From: a virus
Taxonomy: Duplodnaviria > Heunggongvirae > Uroviricota > Caudoviricetes
DNA: 28,428 nt
Direction: 5' to 3' (one strand)
IMG/VR virus record: IMGVR_UViG_2534682139_000012
The notes beneath the pieces are model-generated. The model saw nothing but the letters and a program-made list of their open reading frames with translations, did no database searches and had not been told where the DNA came from. Below, one piece after another: positions 6,920-22,335 of this stretch (the stretch's first letter is position 1; each line of letters begins with the position of its first letter). The translations under genes were made by a program, and so were the position numbers.

Positions 6920-9756
6920 GTGAGTTTGCATGGAGCTGGAATGAACCACGGCCAGCCATTGATCCGGCCAGATTTACGGAGCACAGGCAGGAAACTGAAA
7001 CCGACCTGCAACGCGCCATCCGTTACTACCTTGAGGCGGACAAAAAGGCCCGGGAAGAACAGGAAGCGAAGGAGGAAGCCTTTTTCGCACAATCCGCCAT
7101 GGGTAAAAAACTCATGGCATCCCTTGAGGAAGCCGGACAGCGTGAAAAGCTGGCACAGAGCATCATCAGTAAGCGCCGGGCAACAGAACAAGACCCGGTG
7201 GCCCGTGCCTTTGCCACACTGAAGGCGCTTCCCGTTTATCTGCGAGAACCTCTGAGCCGCCACCTCTCTTTCCTGCGCAAGAAGCAGGAAGCCGATCGTC
7301 AGAAAGGCAAAAAGAGCTGGCAGGCGGAACGCTATGCACGCGGAACCCTGCGCAAAATATTCGAACGTCTGGACCGCACCGACAGCCGCTGGCTGACACC
7401 GGGTTATCGCTCCCTTGCCGGACGCGAACGCCTGGACGATTTGCTTTACCTGCCGCAGCTCAACAAACACCAGATACAGACGCTGGCCACCATGACGGCG
7501 GCGATGTTCAGCAGCACCTTCGAAAAACTCTGCGATGGCTTTGGCGCGACTGATGGCGAACTGACCATGGATGTAACGCTGAAGGCGTATCAGATGCTGG
7601 CCCGCATGGCGTTACACCTGCACGCCATGCCTCCACATTATGACGCACTGACAACAGACAAAGACCGGAGGAACGAACCGGACACGGAGCTGCTGCCGGG
7701 CGCAATCCTTCGCCTGACCTGTGCGGAATGGTGGAAACGCAAACTGTGGCTGTTACGTTGCGAGTGGAGAGAAGAACAACTCCGCGCCGCCTGTCTGGTT
7801 TCCAGAAAAACATCACCCTATCTGAGCCAGGACGCGTTAAGCGAGTTTCGCGCACAGCGCGAGAAAACACGCGATTTCCTGAAAAGTTTTATGCTGGAAA
7901 ACGAAGACGGGTTCACGATTGATCTCGAAACAGTGTATTACGCGGGAGTAAGTAACCCGGTTCACCGTAAGGCAGAAATGATGGCCACCATGAAGGGGCT
8001 GGAACTTCTGGCCGAAGCCCGTGGCGACAAAGCGGTGTTTCTGACTGTCACCTGCCCGTCAAAATACCACGCCACAACAGAGAACGGTCATCCGAATCCC
8101 AAATGGAACGGAGCCACCATGCGCGACTCCAGCGATTACCTGGTTAACACGTTTTTTGCGGCGGTCCGCAAGAAACTGAACCGCGACGGCCTGCGCTGGT
8201 ATGGCATCCGCACGGTGGAGCCTCACCATGACGGCACCGTGCACTGGCATATGATGGTCTTTGCTCATCCGGAAGAAATCGACACCATTGTGTCCCACAC
8301 CCGCGATATTGCCATTCAGGAAGATCGTCACGAGCTGGGTGATGATATTACCCCACGCTTTAAGGCGGAGTACGTCGACGGCTCAAAAGGTACGCCAACC
8401 AGCTACATCGCCACCTACATCGGAAAGAACCTAGACAGCCGCGCCGTGGATGGCATCGACCCGAAAACGGGCAAGCCACGCGTTGACCACGAAACCGGAA
8501 AATCAATGGCCGAGAGCGTGGAACGCGCCATCGGCTGGGCGCGCCTTCACCGTGTCCGCCAGTTCCAGTTCTTTGGTATCCCCTCCCGTCAGGTGTGGCG
8601 TGAACTCCGCCGCCTTGCCAGCCAGATGGCACGCAACCCGGAAGGCCCGCAACGGCTGAAGGATGACGCAATGGATGCGGTACTCGCTGCCGCTGATGCC
8701 GGATGTTTTGCCACCTACATAGAGAAACAGGGCGGCGTACTTGTTCCACGCAAAGACTACCTGATTCGCACCGCCTACGACCTCGCAGATGAGCTGAACG
8801 ATTACGGCGAACAGAGTGTACAGATTTACGGGATCTGGTCGCCGCTCATCGGGGAATCCTCCCGTGTGTGCACGCATCCGGATAACTGGAAGCTGGTAAG
8901 ACGTAAACCGGAAGCGGAAGACAGCGCCCGCGAAAATGGTTTTGACCTTCAGGGCGGCCCTGCCGCCCCTTGGACTCGTGGCAATAACTGTCCCCGTGTA
9001 CAGGAAACGGACAACAACGGGACAGAACAGCCGGAAGAACGGCCAGCACCGTGGCCGCAGCTTCCTGACGGCGTTGATGTGGATGAATGGGTGCGCTCAC
9101 TGAAACGGCACGAACGCCGGGCGCTGATGCGTTCGCTTCGTGACAAACAGGCAAAAAACAGCAGTGATGAAATGCAGAGCTGGACACAGAGCCGCAAACA
9201 GCAGCGGCCTTTGCCTGATAACCACGAATTACTCGCTAGAGAATGGCGGGAGTCTGCTGAATCTCTCGGCCTGCATATCGGTGAACAACAAATGCAGCAC
9301 CTGTTACGGGGCGGCAGTCTGTACGTTGACGGCAGCATCATTGCACCGCAGGGATTTGAAATTGTACGCAAACCGGATACCCGCCCGGACAGCCGAATCA
9401 CGCAGCTCTGGCAGCGCCTGAGCCGTAATCACGGTGTAAGCAGCACGGAGATCCGCCATAACCCGGTCGCCAGCTATCTGGCACAGCTGGGGGCATCAGA
9501 CCCTGAAGCCGCCACACGCCTGGCATCCACACTTCAGCAGGACCAGAACACCATGAAAACACCCGTTACCGTGCTTTCTGACATGCTGCGCGCCATCCGC
9601 GACGCAGAGCACGCACAGAGAATCAGTGAAACCACTGAACGTGCCCGCCGCAAAGCAGACCTGCTGCGGGGTGGCCTGACCAGTGGAAACAAAAAACAGA
9701 CAGAAACGGGATTCACAAATCCCGTAAATGAGCAAAAAACGCGCCGCGATATATGA
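6916..9756 (+). CDS. A: P2 gpA-like rolling-circle replication initiator (HUH endonuclease), with a long C-terminal extension
   Basis: HUH-like motif VHWHMMVFAHPEE and paired tyrosines in SYIATYIGKN; the 946 aa compare with about 760 aa recalled for P2 A; start chosen at the ATG coupled to the upstream stop. Confidence 0.85.
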   Translation: MSEFAWSWNEPRPAIDPARFTEHRQETETDLQRAIRYYLEADKKAREEQEAKEEAFFAQSAMGKKLMASLEEAGQREKLAQSIISKRRATEQDPVARAFATLKALPVYLREPLSRHLSFLRKKQEADRQKGKKSWQAERYARGTLRKIFERLDRTDSRWLTPGYRSLAGRERLDDLLYLPQLNKHQIQTLATMTAAMFSSTFEKLCDGFGATDGELTMDVTLKAYQMLARMALHLHAMPPHYDALTTDKDRRNEPDTELLPGAILRLTCAEWWKRKLWLLRCEWREEQLRAACLVSRKTSPYLSQDALSEFRAQREKTRDFLKSFMLENEDGFTIDLETVYYAGVSNPVHRKAEMMATMKGLELLAEARGDKAVFLTVTCPSKYHATTENGHPNPKWNGATMRDSSDYLVNTFFAAVRKKLNRDGLRWYGIRTVEPHHDGTVHWHMMVFAHPEEIDTIVSHTRDIAIQEDRHELGDDITPRFKAEYVDGSKGTPTSYIATYIGKNLDSRAVDGIDPKTGKPRVDHETGKSMAESVERAIGWARLHRVRQFQFFGIPSRQVWRELRRLASQMARNPEGPQRLKDDAMDAVLAAADAGCFATYIEKQGGVLVPRKDYLIRTAYDLADELNDYGEQSVQIYGIWSPLIGESSRVCTHPDNWKLVRRKPEAEDSARENGFDLQGGPAAPWTRGNNCPRVQETDNNGTEQPEERPAPWPQLPDGVDVDEWVRSLKRHERRALMRSLRDKQAKNSSDEMQSWTQSRKQQRPLPDNHELLAREWRESAESLGLHIGEQQMQHLLRGGSLYVDGSIIAPQGFEIVRKPDTRPDSRITQLWQRLSRNHGVSSTEIRHNPVASYLAQLGASDPEAATRLASTLQQDQNTMKTPVTVLSDMLRAIRDAEHAQRISETTERARRKADLLRGGLTSGNKKQTETGFTNPVNEQKTRRDI

Positions 9757-9832: not shown

Positions 9833-10792
9833 ATGAAAATTTGTATCGACGACGGCTCCACCAACATCAAGCTGGCATGGACTGAGAACAGCGAACGCCG
9901 CAACGCCATCAGCCCGAACAGCTTCAAGTCGGAATGGTCTGCGCCGTTCGGTGGCTCGCAGCCTGCGAACTACATGCTTGATGGCGTGCGCTATGGTTTT
10001 GATCCGGTCAGCGATCGCTTTGTCCAGACGACCGACACGCAATACCAGTACAGCGATGTGAATGTAATCGCCATTCACCACGCGCTGGTCAAATCAGGCA
10101 TCACACCACAGGAGGTGGATGTGGTTGTCACCCTGCCACTGAGCGAGTATTTCGACACAAACGCACAGCCGGACATGGCCAACATCAACCGCAAAAAAGC
10201 GAACGTTATGCGCCCGGTGGAGTACCAGAACGGCGAAGCATTCACTATCCGTAACGTGCGGGTTATGCCTGAATCCATTCCGGCTGGCTTTAAGGCACTG
10301 GCTGACATGAGTCCGTTTGAATCCCTGCTGATTGTGGATTTAGGCGGAACCACGCTGGATGTGGCAAAGGTCCAGGGACAACTGGCAGGTATCAGCCAGG
10401 TGTTTTGCGATCCACACGTAGGCGTTTCCCTGATGGCCGATGCCGTACTGTCGGTGATGGCCACTAACGGTATGCGTACCAGTCACCACATCGCCAATAC
10501 CATTATCGAACATCGCCATGATGAAGCCTGGTTGCGCCAACACATCCACAATGACGCGCATTACGCCAGCCTGATGGCGGTTATTCGTGAAAAGGAAGAA
10601 ACACTGAAACAACGCGTGATCCGCGCGCTGGCGGGTTTTTCGGGTTACGGACGGGTGATGGTTGTCGGTGGCGGGGCGGAGATTGTGGCACCCGCTATCC
10701 GCGAAGCCTGCGGAGTTAATGCGACTTTCATCGCGGACGGGGTGCCACAGTTTGCTCTGGTTAATGGGCTGTACGCAATGGACAAGGAGTAA
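9833..10792 (+). CDS. parM: ParM/StbA-family actin-like segregation ATPase
   Basis: N-terminus MKICIDDGSTNIKLAW ... SPNSFKSEW ... YSDVNVIAIHHAL closely resembles plasmid R1 ParM (MLVFIDDGSTNIKLQW ... SPNSFKREW ... YSDVNVVAVHHAL). Confidence 0.85.
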   Translation: MKICIDDGSTNIKLAWTENSERRNAISPNSFKSEWSAPFGGSQPANYMLDGVRYGFDPVSDRFVQTTDTQYQYSDVNVIAIHHALVKSGITPQEVDVVVTLPLSEYFDTNAQPDMANINRKKANVMRPVEYQNGEAFTIRNVRVMPESIPAGFKALADMSPFESLLIVDLGGTTLDVAKVQGQLAGISQVFCDPHVGVSLMADAVLSVMATNGMRTSHHIANTIIEHRHDEAWLRQHIHNDAHYASLMAVIREKEETLKQRVIRALAGFSGYGRVMVVGGGAEIVAPAIREACGVNATFIADGVPQFALVNGLYAMDKE

Positions 10793-10796
10793 ACCA

Positions 10797-11108
10797 ATGA
10801 CGACACCAACCAGACGGATAAGTTTCTATCTGAAGCCCGCCGCCGTCAAGAACGAAGGCGAAGCATGCGCCTGGCTGGACAGCCTTACACCAGAAGCCCG
10901 CAAAAGCGGCCAACGTGTGGCTTTTCTGGCCGGGCTGGCACTTCTGAAAATGAATCCGGCAGAGGCTTACCGACTGGCTGCATGGGCTGATGATGAAGCG
11001 TTATCAGTGACACAAACCAGGACAGAACGCCCCGCATCACAGCCAGTATCAACCGCACAGATAACCAGTCAGATGGCCGGAAATATCCGGGCGTTATTTC
11101 CTGAATAA
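10797..11108 (+). CDS. parR: ParR-like partition adaptor (DNA-binding partner of ParM)
   Basis: MTTPTRRISFYLKPAAV ... LDSLTPEARKSGQRVAFLAGLAL resembles R1 ParR (RRTIAFKLNPD ... LDSIPQGERSRLNRAALTAGLAL); RBS AAGGAG; directly follows parM. Confidence 0.6.
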   Translation: MTTPTRRISFYLKPAAVKNEGEACAWLDSLTPEARKSGQRVAFLAGLALLKMNPAEAYRLAAWADDEALSVTQTRTERPASQPVSTAQITSQMAGNIRALFPE

Positions 11109-11171: not shown

Positions 11172-11507
11172 ATGAGCGAAATCAACTATCAGGCATTACG
11201 TGAACGTTATTCACCTGTGCCAGTACCGAAATGCCCTATTTGCGGCGAGGAAATGTCAATTCAGCGAATATCTGGAGCACAGGTTGTTTATGCCTGCTCC
11301 GGTTATGGTGATGATGGAGATTTCAAAATTGGCCGAACTCTTGCCGACGAACATTATGAAAAATCACACGTAACAGTGTTGGATGTCGGGATCCTGAAGT
11401 ATTGGCGCTACTTGATTGGCTGGAAACCAAAGACAACCGAATCGCTGAACTGGAAAAAATCGCCACTGACTATGCACTTAAATTCCAGAAAGCACAGGAC
11501 GCATTAA
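11172..11507 (+). CDS. Hypothetical protein with a CxxC pair (possible zinc-ribbon); may be frame-disrupted
   Basis: CPICGEEM ... YACSGYGDDG in the N-terminus; an overlapping frame (11360-11554) encodes a coiled-coil-like tail (LALLDWLETKDNRIAELEKIATDYALKFQKAQDALKYAALL) with no start codon of its own. Confidence 0.4.
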   Translation: MSEINYQALRERYSPVPVPKCPICGEEMSIQRISGAQVVYACSGYGDDGDFKIGRTLADEHYEKSHVTVLDVGILKYWRYLIGWKPKTTESLNWKKSPLTMHLNSRKHRTH

Positions 11508-11644
11508 AGTACGCCGCTTTGCTGCATAGCAGGACAGCGCAGCTAAAATACTAACTTAAAGCGGAAGATTAATACATGGTGAGTCGGGGTAATTTGTTTT
11601 TATCCCAACAAATAAACAAAAAAGTGGACTATCTCTGTAGTATC

Positions 11645-12175
11645 TTATTCAGCATCGTCTCGTGCAGTCTGTGCATACGTCACAACAACGCCCAATGCAT
11701 TAGTTTTCTTTTCAACATAGATAATATTGTCATATTCATAGTTACCATACGGATAGCAAATAAGAATATTTTTATGCAGTTCGGGATCATCAACAAACGC
11801 TCCGGAACAGCTTCTTGAACTACCAGATGTATACTCATACGGTGCAACATATGATGATGTTACTCCTGGTAAAAAATAAGTCACCATCATAAGAGGGATA
11901 ATCAGGAATATCCCTGTAAGAATGCAAGAGCCAGCATAAACCTTCAGGTATTCCGACAGTCCTTTCCAGCCACTTTGCTTCACTACCCCCCTCTTCACCA
12001 GAAACAAGGAGAAGAAAAAGGACATACCCATACTACACAAGATGTAATAATTGGATATACGCGAATTAAGATATGTAATCCTGTAGATATCTGCCCTCCA
12101 CCAGTAAAAGAGGAAAATAATCCCTAGCACTGAAACAGTCATGCAAATCAAATAAGGATATGAATCTTTCTTCAT
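11645..12175 (-). CDS. AT-rich integral membrane protein of unknown function at the P2 tin/old-equivalent position
   Basis: 176-aa ORF with three or four hydrophobic helices and a Tyr-rich C-terminal domain; markedly AT-rich and opposite in strand to the flanking phage genes. Confidence 0.6.
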   Translation of the reverse strand: MKKDSYPYLICMTVSVLGIIFLFYWWRADIYRITYLNSRISNYYILCSMGMSFFFSLFLVKRGVVKQSGWKGLSEYLKVYAGSCILTGIFLIIPLMMVTYFLPGVTSSYVAPYEYTSGSSRSCSGAFVDDPELHKNILICYPYGNYEYDNIIYVEKKTNALGVVVTYAQTARDDAE

Positions 12176-12654
12176 GTCTTGCGCCCATTAAAATTTCCCT
12201 GCTACGAACAAATTTACCATCCGTTTTTTGCGCAGAAAACAGCACGATGCACACTGCACGATAGTGCACAAATTTGCACAATTTTTTTGAACGACTTTTT
12301 GCCCTTCCGGCCCCCGTGGCGGCTGGATCCGTCAAGGATCCGTGCGTGCACAAAAAAACGCGTTTTTTCTGCGCGCAGGTGACGGGGGAACAGCCCGCGT
12401 TTCAGGGGGTAAATAGCATTCCCTGAACGATGTCGCAGAGATACAACAGAATGGCTGTATTTCTCACGCTGAGCGTGAAAAAGACGTGAGGGCTTTTGAT
12501 TTGATGGGGTGAAAGGTAAGGCCGTCAAAATCGCACTGAGACGGCGAGAACATGCAGTCAACGCGGTGGGATTGCGTAAGAGTCTGACTGTCGATGATGG
12601 CAATCAGCAGGAAAGCGTCGTGAAATTATCTGACTGATACAGGAGCTGGAGAGT

Positions 12655-12679
12655 CGGGGCATAAATTTTTTATGCCCCG
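12655..12679. other. Perfect 11-bp-stem palindrome CGGGGCATAAA-ttt-TTTATGCCCCG just downstream of the portal gene (candidate terminator or packaging-region site)
   Basis: Read directly; lies in the 530-bp intergenic region where cos is expected by P2 synteny. Confidence 0.4.
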
Positions 12680-12705: not shown

Positions 12706-13752
12706 TCAGGATGTGGGCTGGGTGTCTAACAGTGCGTAAGGGTTAAAGCGGATCACCTCTTCCCCAAGCCAGTCATTGATGTGCTTCATGGCCTCCATGA
12801 CGGGCATCAGCTCGTTAATTGCGTAAACCCGCGCGGCCTTCTCCACATCACCAAACGCACTTTTTTCGCCCGGCATCGCCCCCATCAGTTGCGGCGGAAC
12901 GCGGTGCGCAGCCAGCACATCATCACGGGATGCCGCCTTAACATTCATGAACTCATCCTTTGCGGTGATCTGCTGGAACGGCAAAATTTGCACCCCCTCT
13001 TTGCCCCCGTTGGGCGCATGGATGAGCACGTTTTTAAACGCGCCACCACCACGCGCACCCTGTAACGTTTCTTTCAGGGAGTCCATGCTTTCGCGGTTTA
13101 CCTGCGCTGCACCGATGTAGATGATGCACCCGGCGTGGGATCCATTGTCGTAATACAGTTTTCTGAACATGTCCGCCGAATGAGACAGGCTGGCCGAGAG
13201 TAATGCGCCAAGATATTCCGGCATGCCGTAAATTTCCTGGTTAATATCCGGATTCATTAGGTGGCACACTTTGCCAGGGCGAAACTGGAACGCGTCCTTG
13301 CCATCCTGCACATACCACCATGATTCAAGATCGCTTCCGCGTCGCATGTATTTCGCCAGTGCGTGCCGTAATTTAAGCGGTTCGCCGAGCATATTGCTTC
13401 TAAGCTCAAGGAATGCGTTACCGAACACAAACCAGTCCAGCGCCAGCGCCGAGAAATCCTGCCGGGAAAGCAGCGGGTGCGGGATGTAGCAACCGAGTAA
13501 TACATTGCGCTTAAAGTAAAGCGCAGACTGATGCCAGGACGTTTGCCGGGCTGCTCTTGCCAGACCGTACCAGTCCACCGGGGTTTCATACCACCGCCCG
13601 TTATCAGCACAGTACATATTGTCCAGCAGGTCATGCCCGGTCAGGCGATAAGGACCATCAAATGTGAATGCACTGAGCGATGATTCTTTCCTGAGCGCAT
13701 CAGCGAGATCAATGCGTGAACTCATGCGCACTTTTTTATTTTTTCTGCTCAT
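12706..13752 (-). CDS. Q: P2 gpQ-like portal protein
   Basis: 348 aa, position and orientation as in P2 (Q then P leftward, next to cos); length matches P2 Q (about 344 aa). Confidence 0.85.
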   Translation of the reverse strand: MSRKNKKVRMSSRIDLADALRKESSLSAFTFDGPYRLTGHDLLDNMYCADNGRWYETPVDWYGLARAARQTSWHQSALYFKRNVLLGCYIPHPLLSRQDFSALALDWFVFGNAFLELRSNMLGEPLKLRHALAKYMRRGSDLESWWYVQDGKDAFQFRPGKVCHLMNPDINQEIYGMPEYLGALLSASLSHSADMFRKLYYDNGSHAGCIIYIGAAQVNRESMDSLKETLQGARGGGAFKNVLIHAPNGGKEGVQILPFQQITAKDEFMNVKAASRDDVLAAHRVPPQLMGAMPGEKSAFGDVEKAARVYAINELMPVMEAMKHINDWLGEEVIRFNPYALLDTQPTS

Positions 13753-20319: not shown

Positions 20320-20461
20320 CCCACCCACATGGGGAAACCTCGGAATATGGGGCGACCGCCTTCTGGATGCACTGGAAACCTGTAACGCGGATAAACGGGC
20401 CATTGCTGAACTGGATAAGAGAATAGCCGAACTGACACACCAGACGGGAGTAACACAATGA
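20180..20461 (+). CDS. Rz1-like outer-membrane lipoprotein spanin (LysC position), overlapping the Rz-like gene in the +1 frame
   Basis: Lipobox LVLLTGC and a Pro-rich body (PVTPPPFPDPP); start could instead be 20150. Confidence 0.55.
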   Translation: MNAPTLCLTLVLLTGCAGTQNAPGPAPSVRLIPQTLTMPVTPPPFPDPPTWGNLGIWGDRLLDALETCNADKRAIAELDKRIAELTHQTGVTQ

Positions 20462-22335
20462 CCAGTAAGAACTTTGCACTGATTACAGCCATGACACAGG
20501 CTGAACTGACTCAAAAGGTGAATGAACATCTTGCGAAAGGGTGGCATCTTCAGGGGGAGACGCGGGTTGCCTACGAACCCGGCACCCCGTGGTATCTAAT
20601 GCAGGCAATGGTGGCCGATGGCACTACAGACATCTCACCTGATTCCCCCCAGCACGGCAGCGTGCCGGAGTGGTATTACGTGGTGGTACTTGCTGGTCAA
20701 TCCAATGCCATGTCATATGGTGAGGGAATGCCGCTGCCGGATTCTTACGATGCGCCCCACCCACGCATTAAGCAACTGGCCCGTCGCAACACAGTGACTC
20801 CCGGTGGTAAAGCATGCGCATTTAACGACATCATTCCGGCAGACCACTGCCTGCATGATGTTCAGGATATGAGCGCACTGAATCACCCGAATGCAGACCT
20901 GAGCAAAGGGCAGTATGGCTGTGTCGGACAGGGCTTGCATATTGCCAAACGCCTGTTGCCTTACATTCCACAGAATGCCGGGATTTTACTGGTTCCATGC
21001 TGTCGTGGTGGTTCGGCATTCACCCAGGGCGCGGAGGGGACATTCAGCGAGTCCACAGGAGCCAGTCAGGATTCGGCTCGCTGGGGTGTGGGTAAACCTT
21101 TATATCAGGACCTGATTTTGCGCACGAAGGCCGCATTGCAGAAAAACCCAAAAAACATGCTGCTGGCCGTATGCTGGATGCAGGGCGAATTTGACATGAG
21201 CGCCGCTACGTACTCACAGCAACCTCCGCTGTTTACGGCCATGCTGAAACAGTTTCGTGCGGACATTACCGAGTTTAACACGCAGTGTCATGGAGGCAGA
21301 GCGGCAAGTGTGCCATGGATTTGTGGTGACACGACGTATTACTGGAAAAACACCTACGGCACGCAGTACGACACCATTTACGGGGCGTACAAAAACAGGG
21401 AGAGCGACAACGTTTTCTTTGTGCCGTTCCTGACCGATGGTAGTGGCAACAATACCTCCACCAACGCACCAACGGAAGATCCGGATGCTGCAAGTGAGGG
21501 ATATTACGGTTCGGCATCCCGAACGAACAAAAACTGGGTATCATCAAATCGCCAGACGCATTTCAGCTCATGGGCGCGTCGTGGCATTATTCCCGATCGT
21601 ATGGCAACCGCTATTCTGAACGTAGCCGGTCGCACCTTAGCCTTCATCAGTGGTAAGGCACCGGAAATCAAACCCTCGCCCGGCGGCGACACGCCATCGG
21701 GGCCGTCTGAAGATGCATCCGTACGCACAATCTCCCTGTTGCCGACAGCCGGAGATGCTGCTGCGCAGGGCTGGAGCATTAAGAATGGCGGAATTCAGTT
21801 GTCAGAGGGTGTATTTAAGATCACCAAGCAGAGCAATAAAGCCTGGTCCCTGACGCGCCCGGTGGATGACGCAGTCTCCCTGCTGACACGGGGTGGCAGA
21901 CTGAGCTGTAAGTTTCGACTGTCAGGCGCACTGACCAACAATCAGTTCGGTCTGGGAATTTATCTGTATACCGATGTAGCGTTACCTGACGTCGTGGCGA
22001 TGACCGGGACTGGTAACCCGTTCCTGATGTCGTTCTTCACCCAGACCACAGACGGCAAACTGAATCTGATGCATCACAAGAAAGCAGGAAACACAAAGTT
22101 GGGCGAGTTCGGGAATTACAGTAACGACTGGCAGACGCTGGAGCTGGTGTTCACCGCCGGCAGTGCCACGGTTACTCCGAAACTGAATGGAGTGGCTGGC
22201 CCGGCATTCCAGGTCATAAAAGACAGTCTGACACTGGGGCTGAATGCGCTGACGTTAACTGATATCACTAAAAATGCCGCGTACGGCGTCGATATCGGCA
22301 GCCTGGTGCTGGAAATCAATAATCCCGCAGCATAA
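20458..22335 (+). CDS. NanS-like sialate O-acetylesterase family protein (SGNH/SASA domain with an N-terminal DUF1737-like domain); moron between the lysis cassette and tail genes
   Basis: N-terminus MTSKNFALITAMTQAELTQKVNEHLAKGWHLQGE; SASA-type active-site block VVVLAGQSNAMSYGEG; 625 aa; this slot is absent from canonical P2 between lysC and R. Confidence 0.65.
   Translation: MTSKNFALITAMTQAELTQKVNEHLAKGWHLQGETRVAYEPGTPWYLMQAMVADGTTDISPDSPQHGSVPEWYYVVVLAGQSNAMSYGEGMPLPDSYDAPHPRIKQLARRNTVTPGGKACAFNDIIPADHCLHDVQDMSALNHPNADLSKGQYGCVGQGLHIAKRLLPYIPQNAGILLVPCCRGGSAFTQGAEGTFSESTGASQDSARWGVGKPLYQDLILRTKAALQKNPKNMLLAVCWMQGEFDMSAATYSQQPPLFTAMLKQFRADITEFNTQCHGGRAASVPWICGDTTYYWKNTYGTQYDTIYGAYKNRESDNVFFVPFLTDGSGNNTSTNAPTEDPDAASEGYYGSASRTNKNWVSSNRQTHFSSWARRGIIPDRMATAILNVAGRTLAFISGKAPEIKPSPGGDTPSGPSEDASVRTISLLPTAGDAAAQGWSIKNGGIQLSEGVFKITKQSNKAWSLTRPVDDAVSLLTRGGRLSCKFRLSGALTNNQFGLGIYLYTDVALPDVVAMTGTGNPFLMSFFTQTTDGKLNLMHHKKAGNTKLGEFGNYSNDWQTLELVFTAGSATVTPKLNGVAGPAFQVIKDSLTLGLNALTLTDITKNAAYGVDIGSLVLEINNPAA

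Follow-up and report, generated by a model that had tools for sequence, protein, structure and literature searches.

P2-like prophages have a cos-proximal hotspot that is proven to harbour anti-phage systems, and one of its commonest cargoes is an uncharacterised membrane protein. The hotspot was defined as the gpA-gpQ interval, and several of its cargoes were shown to be anti-phage; partition genes and cytolethal distending toxin are examples of its non-defence cargo (Rousset et al. 2022, PMC9122126). A gene for this membrane protein is found in the 28,428-nt stretch of caudoviral DNA analysed here (IMG/VR record IMGVR_UViG_2534682139_000012; the whole stretch is termed the window). A first-pass annotation placed the gene at the equivalent of the P2 tin/old locus, and proposed that it is horizontally acquired cargo with a candidate exclusion or abortive-infection function. 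The question is therefore what this gene does, and how far its position speaks for phage defence. If the product blocks phage entry, it would represent a new and very common exclusion family, which bears on host range in phage therapy and on the competition between prophages; if it does not, hotspot position alone does not make a defence gene. The present analysis gives solid grounds for a mobile cargo gene exchanged between P2-like and lambdoid phages, catalogued but uncharacterised; an anti-phage role is plausible.

The cargo gene and its cassette

The replication endonuclease gene repA (6889-9756) is followed by the gene for ParM (9833-10792), the gene for ParR (Plasmid_stab_B, ending at 11108), a frameshifted Ead/Ea22-like remnant (11172-11554) and then the cargo gene on the minus strand. 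A conserved region of about 450 bp lies between the cargo gene and the portal gene (12706-13752, minus strand), and the large terminase gene is also on the minus strand. The position between the replication/partition genes and the cos-portal (Q) side was thus correctly recognised in the first-pass annotation, and the locus is the gpA-gpQ hotspot named above. The features of the region are as follows.

11172..11554, plus strand: Ead/Ea22-like gene remnant (Pfam Ead_Ea22, E=4e-14; flagged as a pseudogene in RefSeq)
11545..12252, minus strand: mobile, moron-like cassette (megablast breakpoints, junction alignments and homology to phage 434)
11645..12175, minus strand: cargo gene (open reading frame; 100% DNA identity to annotated E. 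coli chromosomes; phrog_1416 match; AlphaFold models)
11648..11872, minus strand: predicted C-terminal domain, aa 102-176 (75 aa), a five-stranded small beta-barrel with Cys123 and Cys140
12211..12219, minus strand: candidate extended -10 element, sense strand TGGTAAATT, proposed from TGnTAA conservation
12248..12281, minus strand: phased TGCAC / TTGTGCA repeats, with copies at 12248, 12255, 12265 and 12275
12253..12312, no strand assigned: stretch common to the Xuanwuvirus relatives whatever their cargo (alignments)
12378..12396, no strand assigned: possible cos core, GGTGACGGGGGAACAGCCC, proposed from reading the sequence

The sole long open reading frame of the interval (11645..12175, minus strand) encodes a 176-aa protein beginning with MKKDSYPYL. 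The product is identical to RefSeq WP_000711113, which is annotated as 'hypothetical'. Its start is fixed at MKKDSYPYL, because the window allele has an in-frame stop codon upstream of it. The single opposite-strand gene of 176 aa described earlier therefore exists; the boundary of 11576 that was given with it belongs to an antisense 80-aa ORF and not to the cargo gene. The gene had also been called strongly AT-rich, and this agrees with its GC content of 38.6% (GC3 0.395), compared with a window mean of 0.526 and with values of 0.54-0.57 (GC3 0.50-0.65) in repA, parM, parR, portal and terL. The possible cos core lies between the cargo gene and the portal gene, and agrees with the P2 cohesive end at 13 of 19 positions. 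A perfect hairpin (GGGGCATAAA/TTTATGCCCC) was also observed at 12654-12676, directly 3' of the portal stop codon; a T-run is missing from both of its strands, and the hairpin was not called by the terminator scan.

The closest isolated phages to the window are the P88-like Xuanwuviruses. The 1-kb region of the cargo gene is 100% identical in the chromosomes of Shiga-toxin-producing E. coli (STEC) strains of O103, O45 and O121, and the host element in those chromosomes is a P2-family prophage integrated beside yecA.

Comparison by megablast with 16 related phage records showed that the flanks match in all of them at 92-99% identity, while the window positions from about 11542 to 12253 are uncovered in each (16/16). 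The gene is therefore not core, but variable prophage cargo. The left junction was located at about 11543-11545 by alignment with P88_4B11, and the right junction at 12252/12253 by alignment with P88 and Chuche. No opposite-strand gene is present at the cargo site of P88; whereas Chuche carries a different opposite-strand cargo at the same site. The cassette is about 710 bp long and consists of the gene with about 77 bp upstream and about 100 bp downstream. The Ead/Ea22-like gene next to it is frameshifted and its 3' end is truncated by the cassette; in P88_4B11 the same gene is intact (197 aa). This remnant belongs to a lambdoid-type family. The cargo gene is present or absent between otherwise collinear relatives and deviates in base composition, two of the marks of a moron, an independently transcribed cargo cassette in a phage genome; composition and cassette structure together indicate horizontal acquisition, as had been proposed. 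The flanks are present in 1188 of 5426 complete E. coli genomes, and only 62 of these 1188 carry the whole region.

Predicted protein and upstream region

The AlphaFold model of the protein has three helices (residues 5-33, 38-61 and 69-101) followed by a beta domain. In the Kyte-Doolittle hydropathy analysis, the first and the third helix pass 1.6, and the second averages about 1.5. Model and hydropathy thus both predict a multi-pass membrane protein, in line with the first reading of the gene. When the C-terminal domain was modelled alone, a five-stranded barrel was obtained with a pLDDT of 89. This domain had been singled out as Tyr-rich, and tyrosine does make up 12.0% of it; however, the enrichment is not special to the domain, since tyrosine reaches 9.9% in the membrane part and 10.8% overall.

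Comparison of 26 homologues, with identities down to 23%, showed that Cys123, Cys140 and Gly162 are invariant; Trp26, Gly125, Ile137 and Lys156 are nearly invariant. The two cysteines flank a beta-hairpin in the model, which fits a periplasmic disulfide. The topology, predicted by eye from the sequence, is probably N-in (cytoplasm) and C-out, because Lys and Arg cluster at the N-terminus and in the 61-78 loop. Only about 25 residues would face the cytoplasm in this topology. The dN/dS ratio against the phage 434 allele is 0.10 overall, 0.12 for the membrane part and 0.07 for the C-terminal domain; against a Salmonella allele it is 0.15. These ratios show that the gene is a functional protein-coding one. 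Its product is predicted to be a small inner-membrane protein with a periplasm-facing domain, under purifying selection.

The region upstream of the gene was described earlier as holding four TGCACA repeats within 36 bp. A repeat cluster is indeed present and is non-random, as 0.15% of simulated 28-kb Markov sequences contained at least four TGCAC in 40 bp; its composition is three TGCACA copies (12248, 12265 and 12275) and one TGCACG (12255), within 33 bp. A T7/A7 tract (12283-12289) adjoins the repeats, and the sense strand reads A7 and then phased TTGTGCA-like heptamers. The repeats might be an operator specific to the cargo gene, although we consider this doubtful. Besides being non-random, the copies recur with a phase of about 10 bp, some 53-74 nt upstream of the predicted transcription start. 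P2-like prophages of Salmonella and Enterobacter also keep them upstream of their homologues, including one Salmonella locus in which two genes separate the repeats from cos. However, P88 and Chuche, with no or other cargo at this site, retain the three distal copies unchanged, the upstream region of phage 434 has only one copy intact, and no similar cluster of the TTGTGCA heptamer was found elsewhere in the window, the immunity region included. The fact that three of the four persist independently of the cargo argues against a cargo-specific operator.

Alternatively, the repeats could mark a recombination junction, serve in packaging as an element beside cos, or weakly terminate the rightward early operon. 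The plus strand of the repeat region reads as a weak terminator-like hairpin. A packaging role is possible because the P2 and P4 clones in the tables of Rousset et al. 2022 (PMC9122126) likewise have TGCA-rich repeats on the flanks of cos. Ogr-type TGT-N12-ACA and CRP-type sites were also looked for by eye in the repeats, and the matches were only partial.

Closer to the gene, the TGnTAA of the candidate extended -10 element is the same in all seven upstream regions compared (E. coli, Salmonella, Enterobacter and phage 434), and a weak -35-like TTTTCT is found at 12234-12239. The consensus scan of the region called no sigma-70 promoter, and the candidate at 12211-12219 was likewise passed over. 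No site was called directly 3' of the cargo stop codon in the terminator scan; its sole minus-strand match (11515-11498) falls within the ead remnant, past the left junction and about 130 nt 3' of the stop codon. The predicted RNA fold downstream of the gene is no better than shuffles (z=-0.82). Between the portal operon and the cargo gene, no strong terminator was found by the consensus scan.

Relatives of the protein and movement of the gene

Among the PHROG families, the protein matches phrog_1416 (E=2.6e-45 over aa 90-175), whose function is unknown, and no other. Pfam and NCBIfam scans of the protein gave only noise, and so did the Pfam scan of the 26 homologues. No match was obtained in the PDB with single-sequence or profile searches, in BFVD with Foldseek at E<0.28, or among virulence and immunity families. 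The defence-system search did not support the proposed anti-phage function, as 0 families of PADLOC-DB v2 were matched at E<=1. A literature search by accession and family name returned no paper, experimental or other, on this family.

The family and its location have nevertheless been published as an unannotated entry, and the novelty is limited in this respect. Rousset et al. 2022 (PMC9122126) list WP_000711113 as 'hypothetical' in Table S5A, alongside ParM/ParR (StbA / Plasmid_stab_B) genes. In their curated Table S5B, system 4 is a '3 TM' protein with 470 loci, the fourth commonest gpA-gpQ cargo; the system 4 protein is absent from the table of tested systems in the same paper. The window protein is 57% identical to system 4 (E=3e-62). 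It shares with system 4 and phrog_1416 the three helices, the C-terminal domain with two cysteines, the gpA-gpQ locus and the orientation; whereas the window gene is a different allele, on a P88-like backbone with parMR.

A profile search against 1.84 billion representative proteins found 57 clusters, nearly all with the same architecture of about 170 aa. The giant 3074-aa metagenomic repeat protein P0103 was matched through 11 short repeats with paired cysteines, and was set aside; its score is probably inflated by the repeats and of low information. Homologues lie between portal and gpA, in the same orientation, in different P2-like prophages of Salmonella (65% and 55% identical), Enterobacter (56%) and E. 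coli (a second allele, 57%). The Providencia homologue (24% identity) is located between the antiterminator Q gene and the holin gene of a lambdoid prophage. In Escherichia, Salmonella, Enterobacter and Providencia, the examined copies all occupy cargo sites of temperate phages.

In some Salmonella loci, small genes (81 or 123 aa, then 119 aa) precede the 3TM gene. Such small co-directional genes were observed between cos and the 3TM gene in two Salmonella P2-like prophages, at 7284-7888 of L007 and 7106-7836 of L012, and a box ('GGTCAAAAAAA') is duplicated at the insertion point. The 119-aa protein has weak HAD/phosphatase-like PHROG matches (E about 1e-9). Because these loci carry a weakly HAD-like gene upstream, a link to the anti-T7 'hydrolase + 3TM' system of Rousset et al. 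was considered; it was rejected, as the two 3TM proteins are unrelated (E=69).

Full-length copies are also found in lambdoid phages. Phages 434 (CPT_434B_36), 2B8 and mEp332 encode a 'putative membrane protein' that is 79% aa-identical to the window protein; its N-terminus was extended by the annotators, unlike the window start at MKKDSYPYL. These copies lie between xis and exo of the lambdoid siphovirus, on the strand opposite to the pL operon. The DNA identity between the window and 434 is 78% in the ORF, 76% in about 135 nt upstream and 66% in about 100 nt downstream. With synonymous sites in the ORF close to saturation (dS 1.2), this conservation of the flanks exceeds what neutral divergence would leave. 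The upstream edge of the 434 copy carries about 60 bp homologous to 12253-12312 (about 75% identity), the stretch that the Xuanwuvirus relatives have in common whatever their cargo, which suggests that a P2-like hotspot was the source of the lambdoid copy.

Lambdoid prophages at the ybhC attachment site, among them those of O157:H7, commonly carry the 434-type allele. By blastn, a copy was found in 999 of the 5426 complete E. coli genomes (~18%), and O157:H7 as well as O103, O45 and O121 STEC are among the carriers. The window allele (>=99% identity) is present in 77 of the 999 genomes, and 918 are in the band of 60-80% identity, which includes the approximately 78%-identical 434-type allele. 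As the family is abundant and the cassette is a simple single unit of 0.7 kb, the gene is a worthwhile and cheap experimental target.

Full-length relatives with 33-48% identity occur outside phages in Serratia, Klebsiella, Pantoea, Erwinia, Phytobacter and Kosakonia. The Pantoea homologues are on plasmids of about 540 kb, and those of Erwinia, Phytobacter and Kosakonia are chromosomal. Given these ordinary chromosomal and megaplasmid contexts, the family is not exclusively phage defence cargo. The homologue is directly downstream of ptsG in three Serratia genomes (L031, L035 and L040), and in Klebsiella sp. R390 (L037) it is divergent from an adjoining BglF-like PTS EIIBCA gene. Two of about six independent non-phage contexts thus adjoin Glc-family PTS permease genes. 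This adjacency may be a functional link or a coincidence; it is a speculative and weak lead, noticed post hoc in the gene neighbourhoods.

Possible functions of the protein

The window protein can be compared with several known systems. The P2 genes old and tin have the same cos-adjacent position as the window cargo, and old is likewise transcribed leftward from the cos side; the proteins are unrelated. No ATPase/TOPRIM or other Old/Tin domain was found in the window protein by Pfam or PADLOC; and Old and Tin are cytoplasmic, whereas the window protein is predicted to be membrane-embedded. P22 SieA is the closest candidate for a functional analogue: it is also encoded by a single prophage cargo gene, has 162-164 aa with three predicted helices, and is located in the inner membrane. 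SieA blocks DNA injection, and of the two proteins it is SieA for which exclusion has been shown. No homology between them was detected (BLASTP E=3.1; hhalign profile-sequence probability 0.2%), and the SieA motif FxRYPxEAxxFNK is absent from the window protein. Moreover, the conserved C-terminal motif of SieA is predicted to be cytoplasmic; whereas the conserved domain of the window protein is predicted to be periplasmic. HK97 gp15, T4 Imm and DicB are other small phage or prophage proteins that block phage DNA at the inner-membrane entry step; none of them was matched, phrog_1416 being the only hit of the PHROG search.

The reading that we tentatively favour is superinfection exclusion, a SieA-like block of genome entry at the inner membrane. 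The cargo protein would be expressed in the lysogen from a promoter of its own and would sit in the inner membrane, with its N-terminus in the cytoplasm, three helices, and the 75-residue disulfide-bonded beta-barrel in the periplasm. The periplasmic domain would then block genome delivery by incoming phages, by binding either the phage ejection/tape-measure apparatus or the host inner-membrane entry port. P22 SieA, T4 Imm and HK97 gp15 would be its functional analogues. Expression in the lysogen, periplasmic location, anti-phage effect and target are all parts that we infer. The entry block is preferred because of the hotspot position, the single-gene SieA-like format and the lack of a cytoplasmic sensing module, the cytoplasmic portion being too small for a sensor domain. 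Further points in its favour are the recurrence at the same hotspot, the movement among phage cargo sites, the conserved cassette flanks, the purifying selection, the three helices with a confident beta domain, and the invariant cysteines that fit an oxidising compartment. Against it count the missing SieA homology and PADLOC match, the high conservation of the periplasmic domain, the non-phage relatives, the non-defence cargo of the hotspot, and the failure of the scans to call a consensus sigma-70 promoter or a convincing terminator.

The non-phage relatives also bear on a second reading, in which the protein has an envelope or lysogenic-conversion role unrelated to phage defence and is carried as a benefit to the lysogen. 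It might, for example, modulate a transporter in the host inner membrane, help the cell to tolerate envelope stress, or confer immunity to a toxin that acts in the periplasm. Homologues of the same architecture (33-48% identity) reside at fixed non-prophage loci in Serratia, Klebsiella and others, and the periplasmic domain is strongly conserved (dN/dS 0.07). Such conservation, the highest in the protein, is more readily expected of a housekeeping role or a fixed host partner than of an arms race with phage proteins, and the hotspot is known to accommodate non-defence cargo. On the other hand, all the copies examined in Escherichia, Salmonella, Enterobacter and Providencia are in temperate-phage cargo sites, the gene is enriched where many of the cargoes tested so far are anti-phage, and it matches no known virulence or immunity family. 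With relatives on chromosomes and a periplasmic domain under such strong conservation, an envelope role of this kind is possible and nearly as likely as the entry block. In a more specific form of the entry block, the family would be a widespread and hitherto unrecognised class of single-gene exclusion proteins, whose helix-anchored barrel occludes a PTS EIIC-type port (PtsG or ManYZ-like) or a docked phage conduit. ManYZ is an inner-membrane entry factor for lambda and 434, and PtsG for HK97; the PTS-permease link of the window family consists of gene neighbourhood in the Serratia and Klebsiella relatives. Port occlusion would also explain why these relatives are found beside PTS permease genes, but we regard it as improbable.

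The abortive-infection function suggested in the first-pass annotation, and a role late in the lytic cycle, are both less likely than the entry block or the envelope role. As an abortive-infection effector, the protein would depolarise or permeabilise the cell on sensing infection, and kill the host before phages are released. The defence systems of these hotspots often use membrane proteins as effectors, and a single small multi-pass protein would suit this task; but no partner sensor gene is present in the window, the gene stands alone in several contexts, a sensing module is not apparent in the approximately 25 cytoplasmic residues, the prediction places the conserved globular part in the periplasm, and PADLOC gave no match, so that we rate this as the least probable of the readings. 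Only slightly better placed is a late accessory function, in which the protein would not be expressed in the lysogen and would tune lysis timing, or shield infected cells or progeny against secondary adsorption and injection. In all three phage contexts, the gene points in the direction of late transcription (downstream of terL-portal in P2-like prophages, on the strand opposite to pL in 434, and between Q and holin in Providencia), and the portal operon is not separated from it by a strong terminator in the consensus scan. However, it is dispensable and highly variable among close relatives, it has its own conserved upstream element, and its chromosomal relatives have no phage lysis genes nearby; a late lytic role is thus unlikely.

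Other cargo-like genes were observed in the window and in a related prophage. A 625-aa ORF at 20458-22335 (plus strand) contains DUF1737, SASA (sialate O-acetylesterase-like) and DUF6645 domains, presumably the NanS-p-type architecture of lambdoid and Stx prophages of EHEC. It sits between the lysis and tail genes of the P2-like prophage, and is absent at the equivalent place in strain 2011C-4251; this suggests a second cargo site. A 115-aa DUF2511 gene and a gene of 216 aa without a family match, located at 1639-2666 (minus strand) near the integrase end, may be a further cargo-like pair. In the prophage of strain 2011C-4251, which is of the same type (L003, 35407-35979), a further moron-like serine O-acetyltransferase gene is found on the opposite strand in the interval between the tail-fibre assembly and tail genes.
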